Assembly (NCBI GenBank): GCA_965603505.1
Contig: CBFDDG010000001.1
Span: 1-39,819, forward strand
Source of the DNA: an uncultured Phycisphaerae bacterium
GTDB taxonomy: Bacteria > Planctomycetota > Phycisphaerae > Sedimentisphaerales > Anaerobacaceae
Length of the DNA stretch: 39,819 bases
Reading direction: 5' to 3'
Both the position numbers and the translations under genes were made by a program. The notes beneath the pieces are model-generated. The model saw nothing but the letters and a program-made list of their open reading frames with translations. It did not search any database and was not told the DNA's origin. Below, in pieces: positions 20,597 to 36,670 of the stretch. Each line of letters starts with the position of its first letter. Positions within the stretch are counted from its first letter, which is position 1.

Positions 20597-22759
20597 CTAC
20601 TCGACCTCCCCCGTCACAGGCGCATATTCATAGGCGCCCATGTCGGCGGCGACACCACACGGACGCGGATGGCCGTCGCGGTCGGTCTCGGGGGCCTGGG
20701 TCGTGTCGGCTGTATCGATGGCCGGCGAGCCGCGGAGAAGGTGAACATCAAGGGTGTCGAGATCGGCGAACAACGGGTCGGCATCGATGTTGCCTTCGCC
20801 CCAGGTGACGGTGGAATGCTGGCCGGAGACGGAGATGCCGTCGCGGCCGCCCTCGATGTCGCTGTACAACACCGTAATATGGGAGCCGCGGTCAGCGATC
20901 TCCGTGTTCGAGCTGTCGGCGAGAGCGATCGGCGTGCTGCAGTCCCAGATGATGCAGTTGACGACGGTGGCGATCCCGCCGCCGGGATTGAGTCGGTACG
21001 GCGGACCCCAGCGGCCGAGATCGAACAGCCGCAGCCCGCGCCCGCAGCCGACGATCGTGTTGTTGATCAGCGTCGCCGTGCTCGAGTTCTCGATCGCGAT
21101 GCCGCCGTTGGCACAGTCGATCACCACATTGTTGATTAGAATCGGCGAGCCTTCATCACGCAGGACGATCCCGTGGTCGTCGGTACCGGCGATGAGGTTG
21201 CCCACGATGACGGGCGAGCAGCGGGTCGGGTTGATCGCATCGTCATGGTCCGGGTCGAGGAAGATGTTGTTCCGGATCAGCGGCGGCGGCGTGCTCTCGC
21301 CCCAGAGATCGACGTCGTCGTTGTCCCCGCGCTTGCCGGTGAAGAAGCAGTCCTCAACCAGGACATGCGAGAAACGCGTGTGGACGCCCTGCCCGATGCC
21401 AAGGAAGTCGCAGCCGGAGATGCGAGCGGTCGCCTCGCCCGGATAGTTCGGGTCGTCGGAGATGATCGCGATGGCATCGCCCTCCGCGCCGTGGCTGTCG
21501 TCCGGGAGCCTCTGGAAGGTGCAGTTGTTGACATCGATATGGCAAGCGAGGACCACCACGGCCTCATGGTAATCTCTCGGCCCGGGCTCGTAGTAGTCCT
21601 GGTGGGCCCCCTCGCTGTCGGCGTACTCGATGACGCAATGATTCAGCCGGCTTTCGACCGCCTTGACAAACAGGATCTGCTTCCACGTCGCGGCGTTGCC
21701 ATAATGGGTGAAGCGGATCGGCTGCTGGTCCGTCCCGTCCGCCAGGAGTTGCCCCTCGACGACGATGGAGACATCGTTCTTCATCAGGACAACCGTCCCC
21801 GGTTCGACCTTGAGGACTCTTTCAGCCGGAACCGTCAAGGTATCCTCGACAAGATACGCCCCCGACAAGGTGAGATCCTCCGTCAGCTCGCCGGAGATGT
21901 GATTCGCCTCCGACACGTAGACAATCTCCATCGAGCCGGCATCCACTTCGTTGGCATCGGCATCAAGGGCCCGTGCAGTGACCGTGTTCAGGCCGGGAAG
22001 GAGCGTGATATCCGCCTGCCAGGTGCCGTCGTTCGCATCGAAGTCTGTTGACAGCTCCCCGATCATTACGGCCGCCGTGCCGGCGGCATCGGTCCGACCG
22101 GTGAGCGCCACCGTTTCCGTCGTCACGATGTACGTATCGCCGGTTCGGACGGTGTCGGGAGCGGTTCGAAGGGCCGGAATCAGGGAAAAGTCACTGCTGG
22201 TGAGCGAAATGTTGTGGCCTTCGATCGCGAGGAGGTTGCCGCCCTCCTTGAGCAGGTCTCCCGCACGCCCCAGGATGATAATCTCCGGTGTCCCGGCCTC
22301 GTGGGAGGCGGCGGTCGTCGTGTGCGTGGCGGGGCCCGCGGGCATGGATCGCCGAGCGACCTCCCGGCTGTTCAGATAGGCGATGAACCCGTCATCATAA
22401 TCGATTGCCAGCTCCAATACGGCCTCGGGCGCCACGGAGGCAACGGAGAACTCCTTCCGGATGTAGACCGTGAGGTAGCTGCCCCGCATATCGTCAAGAA
22501 TGGTGGCGTCGTCGTCGTCCCCAAAACCGAAACCGGCCGGCCCGGTCTCCCAAGCGGAGTCATCGAAACCGATCTCCTTCCAGGCATCGTCCGGCACGCT
22601 GGCCGGTGCCGTACCCCGGTAGAACCTCCATGCCTCACCCGGTGAGACGAAATCCGCACCCTCGGACCCGAGATGCAGGGTCATCGCACTGACGCCGCCA
22701 CAGACGGCTATGAGCACGACGACAACAGTGAACAAGAATCTGCCACAAGACCGTTTCAT
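20597..22759 (-). CDS. secreted right-handed parallel beta-helix repeat protein with N-terminal jelly-roll/sugar-binding-like domain
   Basis: The track ORF is 20597..22798 and starts at a TTG. The ATG at 22759 (MKRSCGRFLFTVVVVLIAVCGGVSA, a signal peptide) has a GGAGG at 22767-22771, 7 nt upstream. The N-terminal FDDSAWETGPAGFG motif is followed by beta-helix-type repeats (NNTIVGCG, VVNCIIWDC, ...), and the protein ends with DMGAYEY. Confidence 0.8.
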   Translation of the reverse strand: MKRSCGRFLFTVVVVLIAVCGGVSAMTLHLGSEGADFVSPGEAWRFYRGTAPASVPDDAWKEIGFDDSAWETGPAGFGFGDDDDATILDDMRGSYLTVYIRKEFSVASVAPEAVLELAIDYDDGFIAYLNSREVARRSMPAGPATHTTTAASHEAGTPEIIILGRAGDLLKEGGNLLAIEGHNISLTSSDFSLIPALRTAPDTVRTGDTYIVTTETVALTGRTDAAGTAAVMIGELSTDFDANDGTWQADITLLPGLNTVTARALDADANEVDAGSMEIVYVSEANHISGELTEDLTLSGAYLVEDTLTVPAERVLKVEPGTVVLMKNDVSIVVEGQLLADGTDQQPIRFTHYGNAATWKQILFVKAVESRLNHCVIEYADSEGAHQDYYEPGPRDYHEAVVVLACHIDVNNCTFQRLPDDSHGAEGDAIAIISDDPNYPGEATARISGCDFLGIGQGVHTRFSHVLVEDCFFTGKRGDNDDVDLWGESTPPPLIRNNIFLDPDHDDAINPTRCSPVIVGNLIAGTDDHGIVLRDEGSPILINNVVIDCANGGIAIENSSTATLINNTIVGCGRGLRLFDLGRWGPPYRLNPGGGIATVVNCIIWDCSTPIALADSSNTEIADRGSHITVLYSDIEGGRDGISVSGQHSTVTWGEGNIDADPLFADLDTLDVHLLRGSPAIDTADTTQAPETDRDGHPRPCGVAADMGAYEYAPVTGEVE

Positions 22760-22806
22760 GGAAGATCCTCCGTAGACCCGGATTAATGTTACAGGCAATC
22801 GTCGTT

Positions 22807-22905: not shown

Positions 22906-23316
22906 TCAGCAGGCCGCCACGTCCTGGAACCGGGCGCCGAAGTGCGTCCCACCTTCGAGAACGGTGTGAATCGCCGCGATCAGCTCGTCGAAGTCACAAT
23001 CCTTCAACAAGTAGGCGCGGGCCCCGGCTTTGTACATCTCCCGGGCGTACCGCCGGGACGTATGCATGGACAGTCCGATGATTCTGATATCGGGATTCTC
23101 ACTGTGGATTTGCCGGGTGGCCTCGATGCCGTTGAGCCCGGGCATGCTGATATCCATGATGACGACATCGGGGGCCAGTTCCCGCGCGAGTTCCAGCGCT
23201 TCGTAGCCGGCTTTCGCCTGGCCCACAACCTCCATACCCTCCTGCTCCTGAAGGAACCTGCTCAGACCCTGAAGCACGATCGTGTGGTCGTCCGCCACAA
23301 GGATGCGAATACTCAT
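22906..23316 (-). CDS. stand-alone response-regulator receiver (REC) domain, NarL/FixJ-like, no output domain
   Basis: The track ORF is 22906..23364. From the ATG at 23316 the product reads MSIRILVADDHTIVLQGL...PDVVIMDISMPGLNG...IIGLSMH...AYLLKD. This gives the acidic pocket DD, the phospho-acceptor D in VIMDISMP, and the conserved S and K. AAGGAGGT lies at 23326-23333 upstream. The protein stops about 15 aa after the REC domain and has no LuxR-type HTH. Confidence 0.85.
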   Translation of the reverse strand: MSIRILVADDHTIVLQGLSRFLQEQEGMEVVGQAKAGYEALELARELAPDVVIMDISMPGLNGIEATRQIHSENPDIRIIGLSMHTSRRYAREMYKAGARAYLLKDCDFDELIAAIHTVLEGGTHFGARFQDVAAC

Positions 23317-23422
23317 CGGACTCAGACCTCCTTGTCTGCTCTTGAGTTCCTCAATCCGGCTCATCGCCGAAGCCCGGAGGCACTATTTGCGTCCCTTCCG
23401 TGCTCCGGTCCTCGACGAGTCA

Positions 23423-23747: not shown

Positions 23748-24617
23748 CTACATGTTGGGATCATTTCCACTCGCGTTGGGGTCGGCATCCGGATCAGGGG
23801 CATCCTGCCCTATCGACAGTGCGAGGACCGGCGCTCGCTCGAAAGCGCCCGAAGTGTATAGATCGACACCCCCTGCGTACAGGTACGAGGCAACGGCGAT
23901 GAGTTTGCCACAGGCGTCCAAGTCACCGGAGTCAATCGCTTCTTGCCTCTCGTCGAGACATGGACACTCCCAGACGCCCCGCCCATCACACCGCCTATTA
24001 TCACATCCAGCAATAATGCCGTCACCGCGACATTTCGGACAGTCTATAGAGTTGTCCGAGGTCGGGGGGCGATTTCCACGAGATTCCGAGCGTCTCACCC
24101 TGCCGTAGCCGCCACAGTAGGGGCAGACCATTATACCCAGGCCCCGACAGGTGTCACAGCAAACGAACCCGGTGTTGTCACAATCTCGACAACTGGGCGA
24201 CCGTCCCTTGGCTCGGCACTCCCTCCAGATTCGGCTGGGCATATTCGCGTCCCCGACAACCATCTCCGCCAGTTCCCGGACGTACGCAGACCTTGCCGGC
24301 TCCCGGAGCAGCTTGGCGGCTGCTTCAAATTGGCCCTTCACGCACTGGTCCAAGCCTCTGACAAGCTTATCGAGCAAGTCGCGATGCTCTTCCCTCACCT
24401 GGTTTCTGCGATTCTTCAACTCCAGGATTTTCCCTGTGTTGTTAGGATGCAGGCAATTGGGGTCGCTCAGAATCTCGTTAGCCAGAGCCTCGAACTTCTC
24501 AAGAAGATTTGGGTCCGAAGCAGTCGTGGATGGCCCACCCAGAAGGCGGGTTAAGCACACGACGACCAAAAGGCAAAACAGGCGATTCCTATTTGCGATT
24601 GATTCGTAGGCTCTCAA
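23748..24617 (-). CDS. signal-anchored protein with DnaJ-type cysteine-rich zinc-finger (CxxCxGxG) repeats
   Basis: 289-aa ORF starting at a TTG, with a GGAGG (24626-24630) 8 nt upstream. It has an N-terminal hydrophobic anchor (LFCLLVVVCLTRLLGG). Repeats at aa 143-220 are CRDCDNTG, CDTCRGLG, CPYCGGYG, CPKCRGDG and CDNRRCDGRG. Confidence 0.7.
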   Translation of the reverse strand: MRAYESIANRNRLFCLLVVVCLTRLLGGPSTTASDPNLLEKFEALANEILSDPNCLHPNNTGKILELKNRRNQVREEHRDLLDKLVRGLDQCVKGQFEAAAKLLREPARSAYVRELAEMVVGDANMPSRIWRECRAKGRSPSCRDCDNTGFVCCDTCRGLGIMVCPYCGGYGRVRRSESRGNRPPTSDNSIDCPKCRGDGIIAGCDNRRCDGRGVWECPCLDERQEAIDSGDLDACGKLIAVASYLYAGGVDLYTSGAFERAPVLALSIGQDAPDPDADPNASGNDPNM

Positions 24618-24638
24618 TGCATCTACCTCCCCGGCGAG

Positions 24639-26969
24639 TTAGGGGACAGAACTCGCCAAATGCAGTTCCAAAAACCTGTCCCAAAGCACGAAGCAATAGT
24701 AGCTGCTTTCTCGAAACTGCTCCATCACGCTCCCGGCATCGCGTACGGCCTCAGTCCGTTCGTGCAGAATGTCCTGGACTTCCGTTTGCACGGTGCCCCC
24801 CGTGAAGGAGTGACGAATAAGAAGACCAAGAAGATCTGTAATAACATCCATCTCGACCACGATCTCCTGCAGAATCGTGACAGAAGCACTCCTGCGGATC
24901 TCTCCCTGTCGCACGGCTGCGCTGGCCTCGATATCGTTCGGGCTCTTCTTCAGGATTCGTGCCCTCAACCTCTCCCGCACATCATTTTGCAAGGACAAGA
25001 GCAGGTCCCCTGTGACCGTGCCTGGCTCCGTCAACTCGATCTTTGGCGAACCCCGGAGTCTTTCTAAGAAAGCCTCCAAATCGTTCACCTCATCCTGGGC
25101 AAGCACCGCCCCCATCTGTTTCGCAAAGTACCCCACCACGGCCAGGAGCTTGACGAAGTCCGGATCGGGTTGCCACGAGGGGGTGGGGGTGGGGGTAATC
25201 CTCTGGGGCGAGCGAGAACGTGATCGTCTTGTTCGCCCCGGCGATCCGCCCCAACTCGGAACATGGTCTTCCCACCACTCGGCGCACTCTTTGCGTTCCC
25301 AGCCATCACTCGTCGGCGTCAGCCTCCCTCGGTCCTCCACGCGGCCCATCCGCTTACTGATGAGAGCCTGTACGATCAAGTAGGCCGTGATCGGACCGCT
25401 CTCTTCGATCATCTTGATGAGCTTTTCGGGAATATCAGGATCATGCATTTGGGTGAGCGCGTGGACAAAACGTGCCGCCTGCTTCGTCTGTGTGACCCTT
25501 CCACGCATGCCAGCCGAGATTCTTACTGTACTAAGTCTATTGAGCAATTCCTGCGCCGCCTCCGGGGTATCCAACTCGACGAGCTCGATGATGCTGAAAT
25601 CCGAGGGCTTCTTCGATTCTTCTTCCGGATTCATGCCCTGGACGTTCACCGTCCAATCTCCGAGGTTGACGTTCGCCGTCAACGTGGTCCGCCGTTCCGT
25701 GGGCGTGAGTGTGAGCGCCGACTCAAACTGAGCATCGGATGGAGGAGATTCTGCCAGAAACTGAATGGCCCGGACGCAGCAAAGGGACATCGTAAACGCC
25801 ACATCCGCGAGGATCTCCTCGTGCATGAACGTCCGAGTAAAGCTCGCTTTCAGCTCGGTCGGCCTGACGACTGGGACTGGGACATTGGGCTCGTTCGGCT
25901 CCGGGCTTTTCGCCATCTGTGGCCCGCCAGGCTGAATGTCACCTTGTGGGGCGTCGTTCGGCTCCGGCGCGGCCTCTCTCGGACCGGAAGCCTCGGCCTG
26001 GATACTGGACCGGTCGTCTAGTGGCGGTGTCACCGCCACAGGCGGTCTGGAACGCCCATAAAACAGCCAAACCAGAAGGACAAAGAACCCGATCGCAACA
26101 ACAGGAATCGCCACCATTGCGATCCTCCGCAGTGAGCCAAGTCCTGATACCACAGTGAGATCTTCATCCGAGGCCGGGACATCCGACCAGGATTCATCCG
26201 GTGAGGGCCCGGCCAACAGAGCAGACTCCGGCTCCTCGATGGGCTCTGCCAATTTGTAGGGCCCCGAATCGTCGCCCTCTTGGGGCTCAGATGGCGCGGA
26301 TCCCCCTCTCTTCTCGAGGATGCGGTCAAAGATCTTGCCTGCTTGGGAGGTGGAGATGCCGAGCGTATGAGCCATCCCCATGGTCCACTCTTTGGCGTCT
26401 GCGGTTGCCACATGCCCCCGGATGGCAAGATCCACGAATTTGGCGAAGTACTTGATGACTTCCTCCGAGGGTCTCGATGTGGGCTTGGCCGGTGCAGGAA
26501 TCTTATCCAGGAATTCCTCCACCTCTCTGTCCTTCACTCCGAGCTCACGGAGAGCGGCTGCGAGAAGTGGGCGGTTGGCATCGCTCAAGGTCTTGTCCGG
26601 GTTGAGGTGCTTGTCGACTTCCTCACGAATCCTCTGCACCAGTGTACGACGGGCCTTCTCTTTCTTCTCCTGACGTTTCTGCGCCTCGGCTTTCTGCTCC
26701 AGGTGCTGGTCATACTTCCTCTTCCTGGCGGGATCGCGCAGCACGGCCGCCGCATGATCCAGCTTGTGCCTCTCGAAGCGCAGAATCATGGGGATGAATT
26801 CGGGACTGGGAATGCTCTGTCTCAGCCGAATTCTCTGCTGGTTGCGGTGCTCGTCGACGAGCTCGGGAGTGCAGGACTCTGGATCGATGTCGAGCAACTG
26901 GTAGTAGGTCGGCTTGATCGCGTCGTCCGGAACACCCAACGCCCTATAGAAAAACGTCCACTCAATCAT
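24639..26969 (-). CDS. membrane protein with N-terminal J-like domain lacking HPD, central TM helix, Pro-rich spacer and ~400-aa extracytoplasmic domain
   Basis: 776-aa ORF starting at an ATG. Residues 21-90 read TYYQLLDIDPESCTPELV...RLRQSIPSPE...AAAVLRDPARKRKYDQHL, which follows the J-domain helix pattern (YY.LL...  ...VL.DP.KR..YD), but the HPD position reads QSIPS. The TM helix is IAMVAIPVVAIGFFVLLVWLFYG (aa 283-305). Residues 308-370 are Pro-rich (PEPNDAPQ...SPEPNEPNVPVPVV). Confidence 0.65.
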   Translation of the reverse strand: MIEWTFFYRALGVPDDAIKPTYYQLLDIDPESCTPELVDEHRNQQRIRLRQSIPSPEFIPMILRFERHKLDHAAAVLRDPARKRKYDQHLEQKAEAQKRQEKKEKARRTLVQRIREEVDKHLNPDKTLSDANRPLLAAALRELGVKDREVEEFLDKIPAPAKPTSRPSEEVIKYFAKFVDLAIRGHVATADAKEWTMGMAHTLGISTSQAGKIFDRILEKRGGSAPSEPQEGDDSGPYKLAEPIEEPESALLAGPSPDESWSDVPASDEDLTVVSGLGSLRRIAMVAIPVVAIGFFVLLVWLFYGRSRPPVAVTPPLDDRSSIQAEASGPREAAPEPNDAPQGDIQPGGPQMAKSPEPNEPNVPVPVVRPTELKASFTRTFMHEEILADVAFTMSLCCVRAIQFLAESPPSDAQFESALTLTPTERRTTLTANVNLGDWTVNVQGMNPEEESKKPSDFSIIELVELDTPEAAQELLNRLSTVRISAGMRGRVTQTKQAARFVHALTQMHDPDIPEKLIKMIEESGPITAYLIVQALISKRMGRVEDRGRLTPTSDGWERKECAEWWEDHVPSWGGSPGRTRRSRSRSPQRITPTPTPSWQPDPDFVKLLAVVGYFAKQMGAVLAQDEVNDLEAFLERLRGSPKIELTEPGTVTGDLLLSLQNDVRERLRARILKKSPNDIEASAAVRQGEIRRSASVTILQEIVVEMDVITDLLGLLIRHSFTGGTVQTEVQDILHERTEAVRDAGSVMEQFRESSYYCFVLWDRFLELHLASSVP

Positions 26970-26984
26970 GCTTTTGTCCTGGAA

Positions 26985-29432
26985 TCATGAGCCCCCACTC
27001 GGATTCGCTTTCGAGCATTCGTTCTCAAGGGCCTCGAACTTCGAGGTCCACTGCCCAAGGTCCATCCCTTCAGACTCTAATCGAAAATAGGCCATGCGCT
27101 TGCCCGCCTCTTCGCTCTGTCCCATCCGAAGCTGGCACAGAATGCAATGGTAGCTGGCCTCCAGCCATCCCGGCGTCCTCGTCCCCATTCGCGCATACAA
27201 GGTCTGCCACCAGAGCAGAGCCATGTCATACTTGCCACTGTGCTCGTGGGCCATGGCCAGGCCGCGTATGGCCGTCCCGGCGTGTTCGGGCGAATTGTCT
27301 ATGACGTGAGTATAGGACTTAGCCGCCTCTTCATAACGTCCGAGTCGCACCAACGTGTCCGCCAGGTGAAGACGAAGGACGGCATTTCGCTTGCTCTGAC
27401 CGGCCTGACCCAACAACGACTCGAATACCCTGGCTATCTGCCGGTTGATGCGCTCGGCCTCTGCGTTCTCGCCCCGCCCCGCCAAGTCGGTGGCCTGTTC
27501 TTCGAGCTCGCCGACAATCCTGAGACATGCCTCGGCTACGTGTTTCGCGGCCATTTGCTCCGGCGAGAGCGAGGCAATCAGCGTCACGACAGTATCCACG
27601 TCCCCTGCCCGGATCTTGGCCTCAAGGCGCAGAGCCAGCAACTGGCCCTCGCCATCTGTGATCTGCGGAATTCCTCGGATCGCATCAAGAAGCCGTATGG
27701 CGAGATTTGGGTGCGGCGGGTCGAGCTTCAGCAACTGCGCCGCCACGGCGGCCGTGAGACTCGTGATGTTCGTGGTTGATGGGGCCCCCTCCTCGGACAG
27801 ACTGGCTGCAGCGCCATCAGCAAAGCGTATCAAGGCGGCGGCACTTTCCGCCAGCCATTCCCTCTTGCGGCCGCTCCCGGACGCTCGTATATTCATGGCC
27901 TGCTTGCAGAGAACGCCGGCTAAGTAGTATTGGGCCACACAATAAGTTGGAGAATCCGAAGAGATGGTGCGCAGGATCTTCTCCGCATCACGGAGCCGTC
28001 CCTTTCCGATCAATACTTCCGCTGCGCGGCGTCGCGCCTCCGGCACATCGGCAACGGCAGGGAACTGCTTCTCTGCAAAACCCAGATTCTCAAGCAGTTG
28101 CGATACCGTGATCGGCGGATCGGAACCGAGAGCATTGAGCCCGCAGCGAACCGCCCTGCTGCATACCTCCTCAGCGCGTGGGTCCCCGGCGTACTGCTTG
28201 AGAAACTCGATGGCTGCCACGTGTGCATCTCGCCAGCGGTTCAGGTTCCAGAGCGCGGCGAACCTGACGTATTGAAGTTCTGCACGTGTATCCTCTGCGA
28301 TTGCTGCATCGGGTGGGGCTTTCAACCCGGCTTCCGCTTCAGCGACCGCTGCCTCATAGTCCTTGGCCGCAAAGGATTCCCTCGCTTTGTGCAGGTGCCC
28401 TACACCGGTGCTCAGCTTGGAGCCGCCCAACGCTCTGGCAAGTCTGCTGCGCCACGGCTCGCCGGCGGCACGCACGAGTTCGCACGCCCTCGTGAAAGAA
28501 GCGGGTGTGGACTCCCGACCCTGTCCCTGGTCAAGACTCGCCGTGATGTCCGCCACGCTGACGGCCCACGCAATCGCCATATCGAGTTCCGCGTCGTCAA
28601 GCGACTCCTTCTCGCCGAGGTTGCCGAAGTACTCAGAAGCGAAGCGATCCGCACCAAACGGGTCCGACGCTGCCAGACTCGCACGGATGCGGAGCCGTGT
28701 GATCTGCTTGTACAGGTGTGCCGGTATGCCCTGCCTCTTGACCCTATCTGAATCCAGCTTCGAAATCAGCCGGTTGAAGTCATCGTACGCACCCATGCGG
28801 TACAAACAGAGCCCATGTCCATAGAATGCCTCCGCGACCGTAGGATGAGCACGATAGCCCTGCGATGTCAGATCGTGGAATTTCTCGGCCGCGCCCTTCA
28901 GGAATTCGCGTCTGTCGGATGAGCTGTCCGTGGCAATGGCCAGGTAGTATTGAGTCCACGCCATCTCATAACGGACCCTGCCCATGTTGATGTTGAGCGT
29001 TCGGTACTCCGGGTTATTCTTACGTTGCCGATTGTTGAGATTCTCCGCCATCCTCTGAGCCTGCGCATCCCACCGGCTGTACAGTCCGTCATAGCGGCTC
29101 AGGAGTCCCTGGAGTATTCTGTACGCATCATGCCGCCAGGCGGTCTGCTGTCTGTCTTTCTGCCAGAATTTCAGGCAGATCGCCGCCCGCTCCCGGTCGA
29201 TTCGTCCCCCCAGGAAGTGACGTTCATTCTCATCCATGGTCTGCTGTCTCTGCAGAAGACGCTGGGCCCGATCGATTCTCTCATCCGCGTCGGCCTTCTT
29301 CAGCGCCATCTGCGCCTCAGACAGGAGGTTCTCGATCTCCTCCTGTATGGTCGCTCCAAAAGCCCCTTGGCCCACAGCGAGCGCCAGCAGCACGCAGATA
29401 GACAGGTTCAGCGACCGGACAGCAGACTTCAT
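26985..29432 (-). CDS. large secreted tetratricopeptide-repeat (TPR) protein
   Basis: The track ORF is 26985..29486. The ATG at 29432 gives a classic signal peptide (MKSAVRSLNLSICVLLALAVGQGAFG) and overlaps the upstream exbD stop as ATGA (29429-29432). The whole protein is helical-repeat rich, with A/L/Y/W spacing typical of TPR (for example YHCILCQLRMGQSEEA and GRYEEAAKSYTHVI). Confidence 0.8.
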   Translation of the reverse strand: MKSAVRSLNLSICVLLALAVGQGAFGATIQEEIENLLSEAQMALKKADADERIDRAQRLLQRQQTMDENERHFLGGRIDRERAAICLKFWQKDRQQTAWRHDAYRILQGLLSRYDGLYSRWDAQAQRMAENLNNRQRKNNPEYRTLNINMGRVRYEMAWTQYYLAIATDSSSDRREFLKGAAEKFHDLTSQGYRAHPTVAEAFYGHGLCLYRMGAYDDFNRLISKLDSDRVKRQGIPAHLYKQITRLRIRASLAASDPFGADRFASEYFGNLGEKESLDDAELDMAIAWAVSVADITASLDQGQGRESTPASFTRACELVRAAGEPWRSRLARALGGSKLSTGVGHLHKARESFAAKDYEAAVAEAEAGLKAPPDAAIAEDTRAELQYVRFAALWNLNRWRDAHVAAIEFLKQYAGDPRAEEVCSRAVRCGLNALGSDPPITVSQLLENLGFAEKQFPAVADVPEARRRAAEVLIGKGRLRDAEKILRTISSDSPTYCVAQYYLAGVLCKQAMNIRASGSGRKREWLAESAAALIRFADGAAASLSEEGAPSTTNITSLTAAVAAQLLKLDPPHPNLAIRLLDAIRGIPQITDGEGQLLALRLEAKIRAGDVDTVVTLIASLSPEQMAAKHVAEACLRIVGELEEQATDLAGRGENAEAERINRQIARVFESLLGQAGQSKRNAVLRLHLADTLVRLGRYEEAAKSYTHVIDNSPEHAGTAIRGLAMAHEHSGKYDMALLWWQTLYARMGTRTPGWLEASYHCILCQLRMGQSEEAGKRMAYFRLESEGMDLGQWTSKFEALENECSKANPSGGS

Positions 29433-29860
29433 GGTTTGACCTCTCTCGGCGAAAAGGCGACACGCCGCATCCCGGCGCGATGACATACGTCCAGCGCCGC
29501 GACCATGTAACGGAAGGGAACCCCGGCCTGCCCTTCAATAACCACCGGCCGGTCCTCCAACGCCGCCCTTCTCTGCAATTCCGCCTCGAGCGACGGGAAG
29601 TCCGCGATCCGTTTCTCATCGCACGTGATCAGCACACCGGCCGTGACGCCAAGAAGCCTGATTCGCACCGGTCGTTCCGGTACTGCCCCTTGTCCGGTGC
29701 CCGTCCCCAAACGCGACAGTTGACTCGATATGTCATTTTCCGGTTGATTGAGAGACGACGTGCACATGAAGAAGATGAGCAGGAGGAACACCACATCCAC
29801 CATGGATGCCATGTTCAATTGCGGAACCGCCAGAACGCTTTTCTGTCTTGTCAGTCGCAT
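29429..29860 (-). CDS. exbD: biopolymer transport protein ExbD/TolR family (second copy)
   Basis: 143-aa ORF. The N-terminal NMASMVDVVFLLLIFFM is the single TM helix carrying the conserved Asp. The periplasmic domain ...VRIRLLG...VLITCDEK...VVIEGQAGVPFRYMVAALDVC fits the family. Confidence 0.85.
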   Translation of the reverse strand: MRLTRQKSVLAVPQLNMASMVDVVFLLLIFFMCTSSLNQPENDISSQLSRLGTGTGQGAVPERPVRIRLLGVTAGVLITCDEKRIADFPSLEAELQRRAALEDRPVVIEGQAGVPFRYMVAALDVCHRAGMRRVAFSPREVKP

Positions 29861-29872
29861 AACGCCCGGTCC

Positions 29873-30310
29873 TCAGAGATCAGATGGCTTCTGCCCCGGC
29901 TCAATCACCGCCACATCAACCTGACCAATGCCACAGTCCGTACAGACGTTCATCAGCTCGCGGATCTTCTCCCACGATGCCTCCCGATCCCCGCGGATCA
30001 ATATGGATATAGGTCCTGAGTCCTCACGACCGGTCTCATCCACGAGAAGCTGGCGAATCGAAGTGAGCGAGTGTGTCTGCCCGGCGATTGCGACCCGACC
30101 GTCCCTGTGAACATTCACAATCAGGCGGCCGCCCGCCAACGGATCGGCCTTCTTGCCTTCCTGGGCCTCCGGCAGCTCCAACGGTTCGACCTGGATCCGC
30201 GCAATGTGGGATACGGTCAAAAAGAAGATAATCAGCAGGAATACGACATCGATCAAAGGCGCGATGTTGATCTCACATCCATACTCGCGTTTGGCCTTGT
30301 GTAACTGCAC
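29873..30310 (-). CDS. exbD: biopolymer transport protein ExbD/TolR family (first copy)
   Basis: 145-aa ORF starting at a GTG. INIAPLIDVVFLLIIFFL is the TM helix with the conserved Asp. LIVNVHRDGRVAIAGQ...ILIRGDREASWEKIRELMNVC fits the family. Confidence 0.85.
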   Translation of the reverse strand: MQLHKAKREYGCEINIAPLIDVVFLLIIFFLTVSHIARIQVEPLELPEAQEGKKADPLAGGRLIVNVHRDGRVAIAGQTHSLTSIRQLLVDETGREDSGPISILIRGDREASWEKIRELMNVCTDCGIGQVDVAVIEPGQKPSDL

Positions 30311-30336
30311 GATGTTCCTTTCGTTGGCGCGCCCGC

Positions 30337-31101
30337 CTACACGGCCTTGCGGAATCGACCCATCAATTTCTCCACGACCGTCTCCGCCTCGGCCACCAGG
30401 CTATCAATCCGCCGACGGAAGAAGGCCACAAAGAACATCGTCGGGATCGCGACAATCAGCCCCAGGCACGTGGTCACCAGGGCTTCCGAGATCCCTCCGG
30501 CCAATTGCGACGGTCTGGCCGCTCCTTCAGTCTGTGCAATCTCGTTGAATGACCTGATCATCCCGGTGACGGTCCCCAGCAGCCCAAGCATCGGCGAAGT
30601 CGACGCAATGAACGCAAGGTACTCCAGCTTGCGGTGCAGCTTGGAGATCTCGCGCTCACTGACCTCCTGCATCGCATTCTGCATATCGTAGAAGCCGAAC
30701 ATGGCGCCGACCTGGCCCAACCCGGCCCCGACGACCGCGGCAAGGAAGGAGTCATTCTCCGCACAGGCCTGCCGGGCTTCCACGTACTTCTTGCCCTCGA
30801 TATGCTGACCGAGCTCGTGCGCCAGATCGCCCGGAACGATCCGGTTCCGGCGAACAAGCAGAAAGTTCTGCACGATCAGTGCGACCGCCACGAGAGACAC
30901 CAGGATGATCAGGTAGCCGATGATTCCACCTTTGGCAATGGTGCTCCAGAGAGAGATCGACTGTGGCTCGGCGGTCACAGCGGGCTCCAGCTCCGACGGC
31001 TGCGCAATGGCGCCGCACGTCCAGAGTCCCCAGAACACAAGCAGTACGATCAGGATTGCCAGCCACCTGCCAACCACACGCACGTTCGATCTGTCAAGCA
31101 T
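30337..31101 (-). CDS. exbB: MotA/TolQ/ExbB proton-channel family protein
   Basis: 254-aa ORF with an N-terminal signal-like segment. The core is ...LAFIASTSPMLGLLGTVTGMIRSF...GGISEALVTTCLGLIVAIPTMFFVAFF, the conserved TM2/TM3 of ExbB/TolQ. Confidence 0.88.
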   Translation of the reverse strand: MLDRSNVRVVGRWLAILIVLLVFWGLWTCGAIAQPSELEPAVTAEPQSISLWSTIAKGGIIGYLIILVSLVAVALIVQNFLLVRRNRIVPGDLAHELGQHIEGKKYVEARQACAENDSFLAAVVGAGLGQVGAMFGFYDMQNAMQEVSEREISKLHRKLEYLAFIASTSPMLGLLGTVTGMIRSFNEIAQTEGAARPSQLAGGISEALVTTCLGLIVAIPTMFFVAFFRRRIDSLVAEAETVVEKLMGRFRKAV

Positions 31102-31163
31102 TGTCCCGACTCCACACTGAAACTGTTTGGCGTCCGATCCGTGCCGGAGGCTGCTACGCAGTG

Positions 31164-32387
31164 CTACGGCCTGGATAACTGGGTACAGAATCTATAGCTT
31201 CCATCGTTCTCTCTGGCGATCCTCTTGAGTACGAACTCGCCTCGGTTGTCGTGAAAAGCGATCGTATTGACAGCGGTTTGGAGCACGTCCCTGGCCTTGG
31301 GATTCGCCTGGCGTATCGCCCCACACACTTCGTCGTCGGAGATAAAGGTACGCGGGCTTGCGGTGAATACGCCGTCGGTAAGCAGGTAAATCACGTCGGG
31401 CCTAAGCGAAAGGGCTTTTCGCAGCGCCGGGATGGGATTGGTCCATCCCGTCGGTTGAATTCTGTCTTGAGCCCACGCCAAGAAACGGTCCTTGTTGCCC
31501 GGCGTTGCCGTCACCGACCCGCTGGCTTCCATAGGGGTTGCGTCTGTACTGTAGAAAATGATGTAGAATTTCTGGTTCGGCGTCAGCCGACGAACTGACT
31601 CCTGCAACTCCCACTTGGCATCGTCTAATCGACCGTCCTGACTCATGCTCTCTGAACGGTCGATCACGTACACAACCGCCTCGCCTGTATCCGAGATGCC
31701 GCCGAACAACAATCCGTCCCCTGACCCGGCGCTACCGCCAGGCAGAAACACATCCATGCCCGAGCCAATTGCACCGCCCCCGCCGGAAGGCACGTCAATG
31801 ATTATGGGCTCGGAGCCTCCAGACGGCTCCCCACCACCCAAATCGGCGATTGGATCGTACGAAGCGAGTTCCGCTGAGTCGGGGAGCGAGGGTTCATAGG
31901 AGGGCAGATCCGGGGCCTCGAGGCTCGTGTCGCTGAATTCGATCGTGTCCACGTCTTCCAGCAGTAATCCGGCTTCCCGGGCGTGACTGCCCGAACCCAA
32001 CCCGGGCCACCATGTGATCCCCGTGAAACCAATCAGAAGCACGGCATGGATCAGGACGGATGAGCCCCATCCTACCATGGAAGAGACCCAGTCCATCCGC
32101 TTGGGCTCCCCCGTCGGCATCTCCGCGGCATCCACCAACACCAGAGGATTACGACAGTTCGGACAAGAGACGGTCTTGCCGGAATGTTGAGCTTTGAATC
32201 GGATCTTCCGTCCGCATCCGGGGCAAAGGCAAATGGCGCGGGCTTCCCCATCCCCGTTGGGTGTCACATGGGGACCGCGACCGGATTTCATGTCCTGGGC
32301 ACACACGATCCGCGCTCTCTTTCTCCCCCCGAGAACCGGAACAACAACTCCTGTGGCGGCCGGATGTGCTACTTCCGACCACGTCAA
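31164..32387 (-). CDS. zinc-ribbon / TonB-like SxxxH signal-anchor / von Willebrand factor A (VWA) domain protein
   Basis: 407-aa ORF. The 32387 start is a TTG, and an ATG alternative at 32291 gives MKSGRG... A CxxC...CxxC ribbon (CPGCGRKIRF...CPNCRNP) spans 32154-32231. The TM helix at 32007-32090 contains SVLIH. A Gly/Asp/Pro-rich linker follows. The VWA domain has a DxSxS MIDAS motif (VVYVIDRSESMS) and later LLTDG. Confidence 0.75.
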   Translation of the reverse strand: MTWSEVAHPAATGVVVPVLGGRKRARIVCAQDMKSGRGPHVTPNGDGEARAICLCPGCGRKIRFKAQHSGKTVSCPNCRNPLVLVDAAEMPTGEPKRMDWVSSMVGWGSSVLIHAVLLIGFTGITWWPGLGSGSHAREAGLLLEDVDTIEFSDTSLEAPDLPSYEPSLPDSAELASYDPIADLGGGEPSGGSEPIIIDVPSGGGGAIGSGMDVFLPGGSAGSGDGLLFGGISDTGEAVVYVIDRSESMSQDGRLDDAKWELQESVRRLTPNQKFYIIFYSTDATPMEASGSVTATPGNKDRFLAWAQDRIQPTGWTNPIPALRKALSLRPDVIYLLTDGVFTASPRTFISDDEVCGAIRQANPKARDVLQTAVNTIAFHDNRGEFVLKRIARENDGSYRFCTQLSRP

Positions 32388-32586
32388 AGTATTCGACCGA
32401 TTTGCCTCACACCGGTTCCCCAGAAACCGCCATGCAGGGACATGTCAACGTTTGCCGCGCGCAAGCCCCTTCCACAGCGACTCCCGAGGGTGCAGAATTG
32501 GCAGTGTCTCTTGTGATCCAAGAAGAGCTGCCACAAACCTTCTGAACGCCCGTTGCAGGACCCGAAACCGTTTCTGCCACAGATTT

Positions 32587-32615
32587 AGGATACTAACGCC
32601 AACTCCCGGTGTCAA
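32587..32615 (-). promoter_or_regulatory. candidate sigma70-like promoter (TTGACA-17-TATCCT) heading the VWA-exbB-exbD operon
   Basis: On the minus strand, TTGACA is at 32615-32610, followed by a 17-nt spacer and TATCCT at 32592-32587. The -35 hexamer is one arm of the palindrome TGTCAA-ggcca-TTGACA (32610-32626). Confidence 0.35.
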
Positions 32616-32755: not shown

Positions 32756-33811
32756 TCAGATCCTCCGCCCGCTGCCTGCGAGTTGCTCGGCGACTCGCGA
32801 GTAGACCTCGTCCAGCGTGATGTGTTCGATGGCGTGCGCGGGGTCGCGGCTCTTGATGGCGAGGCCTCGGCTCGATGCATCCCGCGCGACAACACACTCC
32901 GGGCGACCGTAGGGACCGACCCGGAACGGATTCGACCAACTGAACATCATGACGAGCGGTCGGCCAAGGGCAGCGGCGATGTGGCCGGGCCCCGTGTCGT
33001 TGCACACCACGAGACTTGCGCGTCGAAGCACCTCCGTCAACTCCGACAGCGAGGTCCGGCCGGCAAGATTCGCGATGGGATGCCGCGCCAGGCTTTGTAT
33101 CCGCTCGATCATCGCGCCTTCGGACTTGCTGCCGGTGGCTGCGACGGCCAAGCCGTGCTCCGAGGCAAGGCGGTCGGCCAGCGAGGCGAATCGATCGGCG
33201 GGCCAGCATTTGCTGACCTGGGCCGAGCCCGGGACAATCACAGCGTAACGCTCAACACCGACGTTGTGATGGGTCAACAGGTCGCGTGCCGCGACGGCGG
33301 CTTCAGGCCTCTCAGGCAAAACGAATTCCACGCTGAGATCGGATGCGCCGATCGTGTCGACGAGCTTGAGATAGTAGTCGACGACATGGACCCACTCCAT
33401 CCGCGCCGGAATCGTTTTCGTGTAAAAATGGTGAGCGAACTCGCGGCCCCAAACCGGCCCGACGCGGTGCTTGCAGCCGGAAAGCCACGCCAGCGAGGCC
33501 GTGCGGAAGAGCCCTTGCAGGTCGATCACGGCATCGAACCGGTCGTGACGCAGCCGAGAGATCAAAGACAGCAGTTCGCGAAATGCGGCCGGATGACGCC
33601 ATGCCTTGCCAAGGAACTTGCGATCGAAGAGGATGATTTCATCGAGGTGCGGGTGGCCCTCGATCAACGACGCAAAGGCCGGACGGATCAGCCAGCTTAT
33701 CCGCGCCTGCGGAAGACTCCTGCGCAGCGCCGACAACGCCGGCAGCGCCAGCACGATATCGCCCAACGAACTGGGCTTGATCAGCAGGATGTTCTGGTAC
33801 GCGTTCGACAT
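32756..33811 (-). CDS. glycosyltransferase family 9 (ADP-heptose:LPS heptosyltransferase-like)
   Basis: 351-aa ORF starting at an ATG. The N-terminal ILLIKPSSLGDIVLALPALSALRR...ISWLIRP and the C-terminal ...VCNDTGPGHIAAALGRPLVMMF are GT9 hallmarks. Confidence 0.88.
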   Translation of the reverse strand: MSNAYQNILLIKPSSLGDIVLALPALSALRRSLPQARISWLIRPAFASLIEGHPHLDEIILFDRKFLGKAWRHPAAFRELLSLISRLRHDRFDAVIDLQGLFRTASLAWLSGCKHRVGPVWGREFAHHFYTKTIPARMEWVHVVDYYLKLVDTIGASDLSVEFVLPERPEAAVAARDLLTHHNVGVERYAVIVPGSAQVSKCWPADRFASLADRLASEHGLAVAATGSKSEGAMIERIQSLARHPIANLAGRTSLSELTEVLRRASLVVCNDTGPGHIAAALGRPLVMMFSWSNPFRVGPYGRPECVVARDASSRGLAIKSRDPAHAIEHITLDEVYSRVAEQLAGSGRRI

Positions 33812-34207
33812 AAGCGCCGGATTCTATGCGATAGCCGATGCAGAGGCAACGAGCGTCTTGATGTGGGCGATCGGATCGGGCGATTGAGAGCCAGTTCAGA
33901 ACTTGCGGGGCCAGGATGACCGGCAACAGAGCGAGAATCCGAACCGCCGAGGAGGAATTGCCGGTCGGGGTGCGTCGAAAGGGTGCCAAAATGTTGCGGC
34001 TTCAGCGGATTGGCGTGTCTGGGGGCCTTTCTGGCAGGCGTATGGGCCGTGCTGGTGACCAGATGTGTTGAAATCGAGGCCCCTATTGTGGTATTATTAA
34101 CCCTGTGGCGTGCAGGAGTACCGATTATGACGTTAAACGGCAAATCCCCGTTCATTATCAAAAACCATGTCGTCGGGGCGTGGATTCTCACTTTAAGGAG
34201 GACTAAC

Positions 34208-35980
34208 ATGTCTGGAAAACCGCTTCTGTTTCTGGCGGCGATCGCGGTCCTCGCCCTGGCCGGATTGGCTAACGCGATAGCGATCCCCAATCCCGGCTTC
34301 GAGGGCGAAAACACGGCGTGGGCAATGTCCGACACCGGGTCTGACGCAGGCTTTTCACAGGTCCTGGCTGACACCTTGCCGGCGGGAGCCGGAGCGATGG
34401 TGCAGGTGGCGGACCCGATCCTGGTCTGGTCGGACGAGTTTGACGCGGACGGGTTGCCGGACGCGTCGAAGTGGATGTATGACGTGGGCGGCGATGGTTG
34501 GGGCAACAACGAGGAACAGTTCTACACGGAAGCCCGGTTGGAGAACGCCCGTGTTGAGAGCGGCCTTCGTGTTGAGAACGGCGTTCGTGTTAAGAGCGGC
34601 GTTTTGATCATTGAGGCGCACAAGGAGCAGTGGCTGGCGAATCCGGTCTTCCAGAGTTACAACGACTACACCTCCGCGCGTCTGGTTTCGAAGGGAAGTG
34701 GTGACTGGCTGTACGGGCGCATTGAAGTCCGTGCGAAGCTGCCGGCCGGCCGGGGAACCTGGCCGGCCATCTGGATGCTTCCAACGGGCGACGCTTATGG
34801 TCGCTGGCCGCGCAGCGGGGAAATCGACATCATGGAGCATGTGGGGTACGACATGGGCCAGGTCCATGGGAGCCTGCATTCGTTGGCCCACAACTGGACG
34901 ACCGGGACCCAGCCAACCGGCTCGACGGTCCTCGCGGATGTGGATACCGCATTTCACGATTATGCCATCGAGTGGAGCCCGGGGTGCATGAGCTTTCTCA
35001 TCGACGGAAGCGAGTACTTTTCAGCGACCAACCCGGGGACAGACTGGGAGGAATGGCCCTATGATCAGCCCTTCTACCTGATCCTGAATCTCGCCGTGGG
35101 TGGTTTCTGGGGTGGGCAACAGGGGATCGATCCCAACATCTGGCCTCAGCGCATGGAAGTGGATTATGTCCGGGTATATGACCTTGGCGATTCCGTCATG
35201 GTGAACACGGACGGCGACGAGCTTCCCAATGCGACAGACCCGGATGATGACAATGACGGATTGACCGACGCGGAAGAACACGGATTCGGGACGAACCTCC
35301 TGGTAACGGACACAGATGGAGACGGTTACAGCGACTTTGAGGAAGTCGAGGCGGGCAGCAGTCCCTTATCGAGTGGCTCCATCCCGGGTGGCGGTAAGAG
35401 GCTTCTGGTCAACGCCGATTTTCTTCTCGGCGAGGATCCTTGGATCATCCATACCAATAAATTGAACACCGACGGCAACTGGAGCGGTATGGCCGGATCC
35501 TGGGGCGGTGCGTACGCAGTCTCGGATTATGTCAGCAGCCCCGGGGGAGGGGATATCATTTTCTCCAACTATATCGAGCCGGAGGTTCCCAACGCCGAGC
35601 ACTTGCTCTACCAGGAATGGCAGACGGCGACCCTGGGCCTTGCCCCGGGGGATGTCATCCGGTTCCGTGGAGTCGCCTCCAGCACCGCTTCAACTGAAGG
35701 CTTTGTGACGGAGGCCTTTATCCGGGTGCTGGACCGTTCCTTCCAGATGCTCCCCGACTCGGTCGGGGTGGCGATCGGCCCGGAGACAGCCGCCTTTGAA
35801 TTGGAGACCACCCTTGAGGAGGGGACCATCAATGTCGTCCAGGCGGGTGTCCTGATCAAGGGTTCCACCTCGCAGACCGCAACGATCACATTTACAGGCC
35901 TCGAGGTCACGCTCAACGAGGAAACCACACTTCATGTAGACGACGACAGTCTGAGCGACCCCGGCCCCATGACCCCTTAA
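34208..35980 (+). CDS. secreted glycoside hydrolase family 16 (laminarinase/beta-glucanase-like) with thrombospondin type-3-like Ca-binding repeats and C-terminal beta-sandwich domain
   Basis: The track ORF is 33983..35980. The ATG at 34208 has AAGGAGG (34195-34201) 6 nt upstream and gives the signal peptide MSGKPLLFLAAIAVLALAGLANA. GH16 motifs are LVWSDEFD, WPAIWMLP and the catalytic EIDIME. D-rich repeats DPDDDNDGLTDAEE and DTDGDGYSDFEE are also present. Confidence 0.88.
   Translation: MSGKPLLFLAAIAVLALAGLANAIAIPNPGFEGENTAWAMSDTGSDAGFSQVLADTLPAGAGAMVQVADPILVWSDEFDADGLPDASKWMYDVGGDGWGNNEEQFYTEARLENARVESGLRVENGVRVKSGVLIIEAHKEQWLANPVFQSYNDYTSARLVSKGSGDWLYGRIEVRAKLPAGRGTWPAIWMLPTGDAYGRWPRSGEIDIMEHVGYDMGQVHGSLHSLAHNWTTGTQPTGSTVLADVDTAFHDYAIEWSPGCMSFLIDGSEYFSATNPGTDWEEWPYDQPFYLILNLAVGGFWGGQQGIDPNIWPQRMEVDYVRVYDLGDSVMVNTDGDELPNATDPDDDNDGLTDAEEHGFGTNLLVTDTDGDGYSDFEEVEAGSSPLSSGSIPGGGKRLLVNADFLLGEDPWIIHTNKLNTDGNWSGMAGSWGGAYAVSDYVSSPGGGDIIFSNYIEPEVPNAEHLLYQEWQTATLGLAPGDVIRFRGVASSTASTEGFVTEAFIRVLDRSFQMLPDSVGVAIGPETAAFELETTLEEGTINVVQAGVLIKGSTSQTATITFTGLEVTLNEETTLHVDDDSLSDPGPMTP
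34550..34603 (+). repeat. in-frame tandem repeat, 3 x 18 nt, inside the GH16 catalytic domain
   Basis: The three units are cgtgttgagagcggcctt, cgtgttgagaacggcgtt and cgtgttaagagcggcgtt. They encode RVESGL, RVENGV and RVKSGV. A partial fourth copy (ttggagaacgcc) lies just upstream. Confidence 0.8.
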
Positions 35981-36144: not shown

Positions 36145-36621
36145 ATGCAGACGAAGGAGCGGTACGTTTACGAGTGGCCGCGACCGATGGTGACCGTGGA
36201 TTCGGCGGTCTTCGCGTTCTTCGACGGCCAACCGAAGCTATTGCTGATTCAGCGCAAGAACGAGCCTTACAGGGATTGCTGGGCGCTGCCCGGGGGATTC
36301 GTTGAGATGGATGAAGACCTACCGGAGGCGGCGGCCCGGGAACTCGCGGAGGAGACCGGACTGACAAATGTCCCTCTGGAGCAACTGCGCGCGTTCGGCC
36401 GGCCCGGCCGCGATCCGCGGGGCCGGACCATCACGGTCGTCTATTTCGGGATCGCCGAAAGGGACCGGGACCGGATCCGAGCGGCCGATGACGCCGCCCA
36501 TGTGCAGTGGTGCGGTATCGACAACCTGCCGGCAATGGCCTTTGACCACGACGAGATCGCACACCAGGCCATCGAGAGACTGAAGCAAACGGACGCCTAT
36601 CGAAAGCATGCACGCACATAG
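36145..36621 (+). CDS. NUDIX hydrolase (ADP-ribose pyrophosphatase-like)
   Basis: 158-aa ORF containing the Nudix box GGFVEMDEDLPEAAARELAEETGL (GX5EX7REUXEEXGU). AAGGAG lies upstream of the ATG. Confidence 0.88.
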   Translation: MQTKERYVYEWPRPMVTVDSAVFAFFDGQPKLLLIQRKNEPYRDCWALPGGFVEMDEDLPEAAARELAEETGLTNVPLEQLRAFGRPGRDPRGRTITVVYFGIAERDRDRIRAADDAAHVQWCGIDNLPAMAFDHDEIAHQAIERLKQTDAYRKHART

Positions 36622-36670
36622 AATGTCCCTCGCACACCCTGCAACCGCCCATGGCGCGCGTCGATGGACG

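Follow-up and report, generated by a model that had tools for sequence, protein, structure and literature searches.

The nearest described relatives of the locus reported here are the vWA force transducers, proposed from genome analysis with Tichowtungia aerotolerans (Kiritimatiellota) as the seed (Mol Biol Evol 2025;42:msaf138, PMC12204202). Members of this class combine a transmembrane (TM) helix bearing the SHLS residues, a disordered linker that contains a 'motor box', and a C-terminal vWA domain, S-x3-H-x6-L-x3-S being the pattern by which TonB and TolA bind their motors. Those transducers that are tethered to the inner membrane are syntenic with tolQ, two heterologous tolR genes and a TPR gene, AlphaFold 3 models place the TM histidine at the TonB/TolA site on the motor, and the taxa listed are Proteobacteria, Planctomycetes, Verrucomicrobia, Bacteroidetes and Rhodothermaeota (PMC12204202). 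Our literature search found no other paper describing the class. Here we analyse a stretch of 39,819 nucleotides (nt) from an uncultured Phycisphaerae bacterium (Planctomycetota; assembly GCA_965603505.1, contig CBFDDG010000001.1, positions 1 to 39,819), referred to throughout as the window, and within it an operon of seven minus-strand open reading frames (ORFs; 23748-32387), named g1 to g7 in order, which an original prediction made from the letters of the DNA had taken for a Ton/Tol-type motor rewired to move a VWA head.

We argue that this operon is the Planctomycetota version of the vWA force-transducer system, and that it uses the proton-motive force (PMF) to do work on a periplasmic complex of its own products rather than for a TonB-type opening of outer-membrane (OM) transporters; we give this reading a probability of about 0.7. 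Its membership in the vWA system follows from the homology of g1, the motif in the g1 TM helix, the vWA fold, and the synteny with one tolQ-type gene, two tolR-type genes and a TPR gene.

Judged by its sequence, g1 is a transducer in the style of TonB and TolA whose head is a VWA domain. In a Pfam scan of the 360-residue product read from window position 32246, residues 190-353 matched VWA_3 at 2.6e-9 (37.8 bits, cut-off 27), and VWA_2 and VWA were likewise above the gathering cut-off. Across 15 aligned family members the TM helix keeps the pattern GW..S...H......[FL]...[TS]W; the S-x3-H element was located in 12 g1 homologues, and the homologue at locus L009 carries the full S/H/L/S pattern. 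Some 10-20 residues past the helix lies an alternating hydrophobic, strand-like segment (EAGLLLED, EVGIVTDD and similar) which, by sequence only, fits the published motor box, and an acidic and Gly-rich linker of about 90-100 residues stretches between the TM region and the VWA domain. That domain has a conserved start, SFFGLEA.G..FVYVVD.SGSM, and the 15-sequence alignment preserves the full triad (DxSxS, T, D) of the metal-ion-dependent adhesion site (MIDAS). The SxxxH anchor and the VWA/MIDAS domain that had been picked out from the sequence are therefore real, and conserved in the family. Searched against the single sequence of Tichowtungia transducer 2, transcribed from the supplement of PMC12204202, a hidden Markov model (HMM) of the g1 family scored 51 bits (E=6.4e-18 in this one-sequence search), with an alignment that takes in the stretch from the TM helix to halfway through the VWA domain; because of this match we place g1 in the published family. 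A cytoplasmic Zn ribbon ahead of the g1 TM helix is optional, being found in the window and in about half of the lineages and absent from L007 and L009-L011. The longest g1 ORF has 407 residues and begins at TTG 32387, with alternative starts at GTG 32306 and ATG 32291; since distant homologues also keep the ribbon, translation must begin upstream of it, likely at GTG 32306 or ATG 32291.

For the motor genes and for g5, as for the VWA domain, Pfam agrees with the earlier assignments (one ExbB, two ExbD, a TPR protein). The stator subunit g2 has an N-terminal signal-like segment and, in the family alignment, the conserved channel motifs GTVTGM and ISEALxTT; compared with PDB structures, it matches ExbB and TolQ about equally (7e-12 vs 7e-11). 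The best NCBIfam models for g2-g4 are TolQ and TolR, and the TolQ, TolR and YbgF equivalog scores are all far below their cut-offs. Both ExbD paralogues keep the TM aspartate, as had been noted (D21 of g3 at 30248-30250, in LIDVVF; D22 of g4 at 29795-29797, in MVDVVF), and this residue is invariant in each paralogue across 17-18 homologues. In every locus g3 and g4 belong to distinct orthologous groups. PADLOC found only a marginal ZorA similarity for the ExbB, nothing for the remaining products and no defence-system assignment, which rules out an anti-phage Zorya-like system.

A conventional head for this motor was sought among the products and their relatives. None of the seven products matched TonB_C or the TolA, TolB and Pal families at E<=1 in Pfam and NCBIfam; neither TonB_C nor TolA turned up in the g6 and g5 homologues scanned, TonB_C being missing at E<=0.01 from 33 of g6 and at E<=0.001 from 10 of g5, and the structural models of g6 and g7 show no such fold. 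The lack of a TonB_C or TolA domain, central to the original prediction, is thereby borne out. Pfam scans of 20 larger ORFs elsewhere in the window detected no TonB-dependent receptor family. Compared with the Ton system (ExbB-ExbD-TonB, with common exbB-exbD-exbD-tonB-TPR clusters), the operon shares an ExbB/ExbD stator with the essential Asp, an S-x3-H anchor helix, a flexible periplasmic spacer and a TPR gene, but it has no TonB_C and its head is a VWA/MIDAS domain. It differs from Tol-Pal in that no TolA domain III, TolB or Pal accompanies g1-g7, either among the products or as a recurring flanking family.

The arrangement is not peculiar to the window. We assembled 40 loci from an ExbB scan of species-representative genomes, a metagenome scan with the g6 alignment, and database relatives of g6, and determined the gene content of each with local HMMs for the seven proteins against six-frame ORFs; word-indexed protein searches, whether started from g6, from g5 or from a g6 alignment of 33 sequences, returned close relatives only, so that an exhaustive profile search and contig pattern scans were needed. 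The complete series g1-g2-g3-g4-g5-g6-g7 recurs in unchanged order at 15 non-redundant places: the window, L005, L009, L010, L011, L018, L019, L025, L026, L032, L034, L035 and L038, together with two contig pairs, L027/L028 and L006/L039. Nine more loci, cut by contig ends, are consistent with this order. Identity to the window falls to 23-30% for g5-g7 and is about 57-70% for ExbB, and the loci come from metagenomes and from metagenome-assembled genomes labelled as Phycisphaerae, Sedimentisphaerales (class Phycisphaerae) and Pirellulales (class Planctomycetia). Synteny of the VWA, J-like and zinc-finger genes with exbB-exbD-exbD thus extends to distant relatives, as the original prediction required. 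A comparison of flanks between loci found no flanking gene family recurring in three or more of them; since the flanking genes differ whilst the seven genes persist, these form a self-contained, conserved Planctomycetota operon and not a chance arrangement.

How much of this is new can be judged against PMC12204202. In both cases the transducer has a TM Ser/His motif, then a segment that here is a candidate strand-like one, a linker some 100 residues long and a VWA fold at the C-terminus, and is adjoined by one tolQ/exbB, two different tolR/exbD genes and a TPR gene, with Planctomycetes on the published list. The differences are several: there the vWA gene lies downstream of TPR-tolQ-tolR-tolR, whereas here it comes first and the TPR gene follows the motor; the vWA transducers number two in Tichowtungia and one in this operon; the Tichowtungia protein lacks the MIDAS DxSxS (FILDANKLM in its place), which is intact here; and, on our side of the comparison, many members have a cytoplasmic Zn ribbon, and g6 and g7 are conserved members of the unit. 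The core of VWA transducer, TolQ/TolR-type motor and TPR protein is therefore not new, and independently reproduces the 2025 proposal: the central idea of a motor rewired to a VWA head was right, but had already been published. The statement that the combination was no described system survives only for g6 and g7, which are not mentioned in the text of PMC12204202 or in two of its supplementary files. What is new is that the Planctomycetota form is a fixed unit of seven genes, and that it includes the pair g6 and g7.

The three products that follow the motor are less familiar. The TPR family matches of g5 cluster near residues 650-750, and in 10 homologues Pfam reported TPR matches only, or none. 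Its relatives have cleavable-looking signal peptides without a lipobox across the family, and NCBIfam models give it a weak resemblance to YbgF/CpoB.

The g6 protein has no Pfam match, and its relatives carry no public annotation other than 'hypothetical protein'. An exhaustive profile search of 1.84 billion proteins returned a family of 153 representatives; Pfam recognised HEAT_2 in 8 and DnaJ in 2 of 33 members. The AlphaFold2 (AF2) model, with a mean predicted local distance difference test score (pLDDT) of 81.9, is wholly helical and divides into a cytoplasmic helical part (residues 1-220), a TM helix (278-304), a disordered linker (305-365) and a periplasmic all-alpha domain (370-776); neither the model nor its periplasmic domain had a PDB fold match better than E=0.2. 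Nearly all full-length relatives have a single TM helix, at about residue 250-415. From the missing N-terminal signal and an Arg cluster on the N side of the TM helix, we infer an N-in, C-out topology. Residues 1-125, searched as a profile, match PDB J domains almost exclusively (best E=8e-4) and align with J-domain helices I and III/IV; at the HPD position stands a conserved LRQNIPGPQF, so that the HPD of a true J domain is absent, and the J-like domain should not, going by this motif, activate Hsp70.

Family comparison found no conserved Ser or His in the g6 TM helix. The suggestion that g6 is a second TonB-like transducer has accordingly been dropped, as its helix lacks the S/H motor-binding motif; that it might be a hidden TonB or TolA is ruled out by the all-alpha model, the want of a PDB fold match, the absence of TonB_C from the 33 members and the same missing Ser/His motif. 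Stand-alone g6 paralogues occur at three loci (L016, L021 and L036). In a subgroup of g6 relatives with 1100-1165 residues (P0017, P0031, P0034 and similar; L012, L024-L026, L033, L034) the added length separates the J-like region from the periplasmic domain, and part of the 185-304 region is matched a second time by the HMM, which suggests that these long forms carry an internal duplication of the cytoplasmic helical segment.

The last product, g7, consists of an N-terminal signal-like helix, a helical domain, a cysteine-rich domain and a C-terminal motif. Its match to PF00684 (DnaJ_CXXCXGXG) reaches 18.9 bits, below the cut-off of 32.7 (E=0.0019); in the alignment the CxxCxGxG-type Cys and Gly columns are invariant, and the C-terminal YL..GG[IV]DLY..A..P is nearly so. 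The AF2 model (pLDDT 74), for which the alignment consisted of natural g6-g7 fusion proteins, has helices and a small cysteine-rich, zinc-finger-like domain. The top five Foldseek matches are all BSD2 or DnaJ zinc-finger domains, with probabilities up to 1.0 and, because the domain is small, E values of at least 0.1; among them are BSD2 (6ekb), with a probability of 1.0 and a target TM-score of 0.69, the cysteine-rich domain of DnaJ (1exk) and the zinc finger of DNAJA3. For the J-like and DnaJ-type zinc-finger calls of the original prediction the support is therefore weak but consistent, with HPD missing and Pfam scores below the cut-offs. The likeness to DnaJ/Hsp40 thus lies in the J-domain helices of the g6 N-terminus and in a g7 cysteine-rich domain closest in fold to BSD2/DnaJ; set against this, the inner membrane would separate the two modules, g6 has no HPD, and no Hsp70 partner is evident. 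With such a J-like domain, the proposed coupling to chaperone function is conjecture.

The two proteins belong together all the same. They always co-occur. In L010, L019, L030 and L039 and in about 8-9 database representatives, spread over several lineages, g7 is fused to the g6 C-terminus in a single ORF, and even the most distant g6 relative examined (L040) has a g7-like gene after it. The recurrent fusions imply that g7 and the C-terminal domain of g6 share a compartment, inferred to be the periplasm, and the constant pairing argues that the two function together.

How might such a set of proteins work? By analogy with Ton/Tol structures and with the models published in 2025, g2, g3 and g4 would form an inner-membrane, proton-driven stator, probably in a 5:1:1 ratio, with the g1 helix docking on its periphery via the conserved Ser/His face. 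Proton flow would make the motor pull on the roughly 100-residue acidic linker of g1 and load the periplasmic VWA head, which, having kept a complete MIDAS, presumably grips an acidic residue of a partner via its metal site. The products of g5, g6 and g7 are co-inherited with the motor genes, and this synteny suggests that they could make up a periplasmic and membrane assembly containing the partner of the head: g5 perhaps as a secreted TPR scaffold, g6 as the link to the cytoplasm, with its J-like domain inside and its HEAT-like alpha domain in the periplasm, and g7 as a protein that would work with the periplasmic end of g6. The nearly invariant Asp of GG[IV]DLY in g7 is a candidate MIDAS ligand. 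The output could be envelope tethering, uptake, surface adhesion, gliding or protein remodelling.

Several points weigh against this reading. Our negative result for a canonical tonB or tolA covers one window of the genome, and a copy elsewhere is possible. No OM component is encoded in the cluster or, from the comparison of flanks, conserved beside it. The unit is not strictly invariant, L012 being without exbB. The class itself is known from genomes alone, its function being described as unknown and no deletion phenotypes being reported (PMC12204202). Finally, the Tichowtungia protein lacks the MIDAS serines, so that metal-dependent ligand binding may not be general to vWA transducers.

Four other explanations can be considered. 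A system for envelope tethering or division that replaces Tol-Pal, in which the VWA head captures a peptidoglycan- or OM-associated partner and pulls the OM inward, seems to us unlikely. The preference of g2-g4 for the TolQ and TolR models and the faint YbgF/CpoB character of g5 would suit such a role, as would an FtsW/RodA gene about 4 kb downstream in the window and an earlier survey that, in the form cited in the supplement of PMC12204202, found no pal in Planctomycetes; but the equivalog scores for TolQ, TolR and YbgF fall far short of their cut-offs, the FtsW/RodA neighbourhood is confined to close relatives, and no analogue of TolB or Pal was identified.

An Agl-Glt-like machine for surface adhesion or gliding, with a TolQ-like pentamer and two TolR-like proteins driving bitopic proteins that link a cytoplasmic platform via a periplasmic TPR protein to a VWA adhesin, is decidedly unlikely, even if gliding is a possibility raised by the authors of PMC12204202. 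As set out in PMC11761067 and PMC9946355, the Myxococcus xanthus system combines AglR5 with an AglQ/AglS heterodimer, the bitopic proteins GltG and GltJ, of which GltJ has an N-terminal zinc ribbon (PMC9946355), the TPR proteins GltC, GltD and GltE, and the VWA adhesin CglB, within a set of at least 17 proteins that includes OM barrels (PMC11761067). A heteromeric TolR-like pair in a TolQ-like pentamer has its counterpart here in the two ExbD paralogues, and the g1 Zn ribbon, the cytoplasmic domain of g6, the TPR protein and the VWA domain match further Agl-Glt parts, namely bitopic proteins with cytoplasmic N-domains, a periplasmic TPR protein and a VWA gripping element. The resemblance is confined to the heteromeric stator and the overall plan: GltG and GltJ end in TonB-CTD-like domains, of which there is none here; CglB is an OM lipoprotein on a GltABH/K-CglB platform, whereas no OM component was identified here and no OM barrel or lipoprotein genes are conserved in the flanks; and the VWA domain of g1, whose tether to the inner membrane measures just some 100 residues, would not reach the cell surface. 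The Zn ribbon, moreover, is missing in several lineages.

A more adventurous reading, and in our estimation a long shot, starts from the fact that the periplasm has no ATP. The operon might then be a PMF-powered periplasmic protein-handling machine, in which the TolQR-type motor, acting through the MIDAS-bearing VWA head, would do the mechanical work for which the cytoplasm has Hsp70, whilst g7, the HEAT-like domain of g6 and g5 would hold clients or assemblies, the J-like domain of g6 would report or gate from inside, and the Asp of the g7 GG[IV]DLY would serve as the MIDAS ligand.

Weakest of all, and very unlikely, is an ordinary Ton/Tol stator whose real TonB or TolA is encoded elsewhere, with the VWA, TPR, g6 and g7 genes lying beside it by no functional relation. 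In favour of this, some ExbB/ExbD sets have no tonB next to them, our view of the genome is limited to a single window, and weak TolQ-, TolR- and YbgF-like matches exist. Against it, the other four genes hold their places relative to the motor genes in distant lineages with different flanks, S-x3-H is retained in all 12 of the g1 homologues in which it was located, the g4 and g5 genes share 4 nt, and neither the seven products nor any recurring flanking family supplies a TolB or Pal.

Table 1. The seven genes, the parts of their products and the promoter candidate (positions in the window).
Feature	Position	Strand	Basis
g1, vWA-type force transducer	31164..32387	-	Pfam VWA_3/VWA_2/VWA above cut-off; conserved TM motif and MIDAS; Tichowtungia profile match
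g1 cytoplasmic Zn ribbon (CxxC...CPxC)	32154-32231	-	family alignment
g1 TM helix, S-x3-H-x6-F-x3-T (S-VLI-H)	32007-32078	-	family alignment
g1 strand-like 'motor box' candidate EAGLLLED	31953-31976	-	alignment
g1 VWA domain	about 31679 to end of g1	-	Pfam
g1 MIDAS	DxSxS 31644-31679, T 31434-31451, D 31371-31385	-	alignment
g2, ExbB/TolQ-type stator subunit, 254 aa	30337..31101	-	Pfam MotA_ExbB 3.2e-32; best NCBIfam model TolQ
g3, ExbD/TolR paralogue 1, 145 aa	29873..30310	-	ExbD 8.9e-21
g4, ExbD/TolR paralogue 2, 143 aa	29429..29860	-	ExbD 8.1e-20
g5, secreted TPR-type protein, ~815 aa	26985..29432	-	TPR_2, TPR_19 and TPR_12 matches
g6, bitopic inner-membrane protein, 776 aa	24639..26969	-	AF2 model, profile searches; no Pfam match itself
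g6 cytoplasmic HPD-less J-like domain	26685-26969	-	N-terminal profile vs PDB J domains
g6 further cytoplasmic helices	down to 26139	-	AF2 model
g6 TM helix	26058-26138	-	model and sequence
g6 Pro-rich disordered linker, 15 Pro in 65 residues	25875-26057	-	sequence and model
g6 periplasmic all-alpha HEAT-like domain	24642-25874	-	AF2 model
g7, secreted protein, 289 aa	23748..24617	-	DnaJ_CXXCXGXG E=0.0019 (below cut-off), AF2 model, Foldseek
g7 signal or anchor helix	24534-24581	-	sequence
g7 candidate DnaJ/BSD2-type cysteine-rich domain	23958-24191	-	alignment, Foldseek
g7 C-terminal motif YL..GG[IV]DLY..A..P	23829-23885	-	family alignment
Sigma-70-like site TTGACA-17-TATCCT, candidate promoter only	32587..32615	-	10/12 consensus match in upstream gap

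ORF calling reproduced all seven genes at the coordinates first proposed (Table 1), together with their spacings from g1 to g7 (62, 26, 12, -4, 15 and 21 nt) and the ATGA overlap of g4 and g5 (29429-29432). The flanking gaps were of the right order of size and each given one too high: the upstream gap, bounded by a GT9 heptosyltransferase gene (32756-33811), is 368 nt rather than 369, and the downstream gap, bounded by a response-regulator gene (22906-23364), is 383 nt rather than 384. The claim that the upstream gap holds the best promoter candidate of the window did not stand, as shuffled sequence yields 10/12 sigma-70-like sites about as often (3.0 expected vs 4 observed) and a better match exists: GTGACA-16-TATAAT, 11/12, at 24130-24157 (-), the best in the scanned region, lies within the g7 coding sequence, where it may have arisen by chance or may act as an internal promoter of the response-regulator gene downstream. 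Rfam families were found nowhere in the window, gaps included.

Around the operon the window encodes large secreted proteins, namely a subtilase with beta-helix and dockerin domains (14636-18274), a beta-helix/NosD-like protein (20597-22798) and a GH16 protein with TSP3 repeats (33983-35980), as well as the FtsW/RodA protein (18430-19617); the subtilase, NosD-like, GH16 and FtsW/RodA neighbours are common only to the closest relatives (L001, L005). Elsewhere a pair of long ORFs on opposite strands, 36608-38572 (+) and 36671-38611 (-), cover nearly the same stretch; the plus-strand one is probably spurious, because only its minus-strand partner has a Pfam match (an N-terminal GGACT, gamma-glutamyl cyclotransferase-like).

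Some of the other loci have features of their own. On JGI contig Ga0272442_10000424 (L013/L022 and L034) two paralogous copies of the cluster lie about 10 kb apart: the L034 copy is complete, and the other, which has more flank in L012 from a different sample, is without exbB between the VWA gene and the first exbD, and may borrow ExbB from the complete copy. Adjoining the L012 copy on the opposite strand (L012:14320-23489) are genes for a peptidase M14, a TPR protein, a Sortilin-Vps10-like protein, DUF4159 and a VWA/GATase1-like protein, which resemble Bat/aerotolerance-type VWA clusters and are not conserved at other loci. At L008:2164-7081 an ExbB relative of 70% identity stands without the other six genes, between an enolase-superfamily gene and secA. 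Downstream of the g6-g7 fusion at L039 (8872-14082) runs a series of YukD (ubiquitin-like), ThiF (E1-like), JAB, FHA, Prok-RING and UQ_con (E2-like) genes, reminiscent of a bacterial cluster for ubiquitin-like conjugation and probably without any connection to the motor.

To our knowledge, TonB and TolA were for long the only known ways to deliver the proton energy of the inner membrane to the outer envelope. VWA-headed transducers are a third class, proposed in 2025 from genomes without a function or a target (PMC12204202), and their seven-gene form bears on the envelope biology of a phylum in which, according to the survey cited in the supplement of that paper, pal was not found. For the VWA head, g5, g6 and g7 provide a short list of co-inherited candidate partners to pull on.

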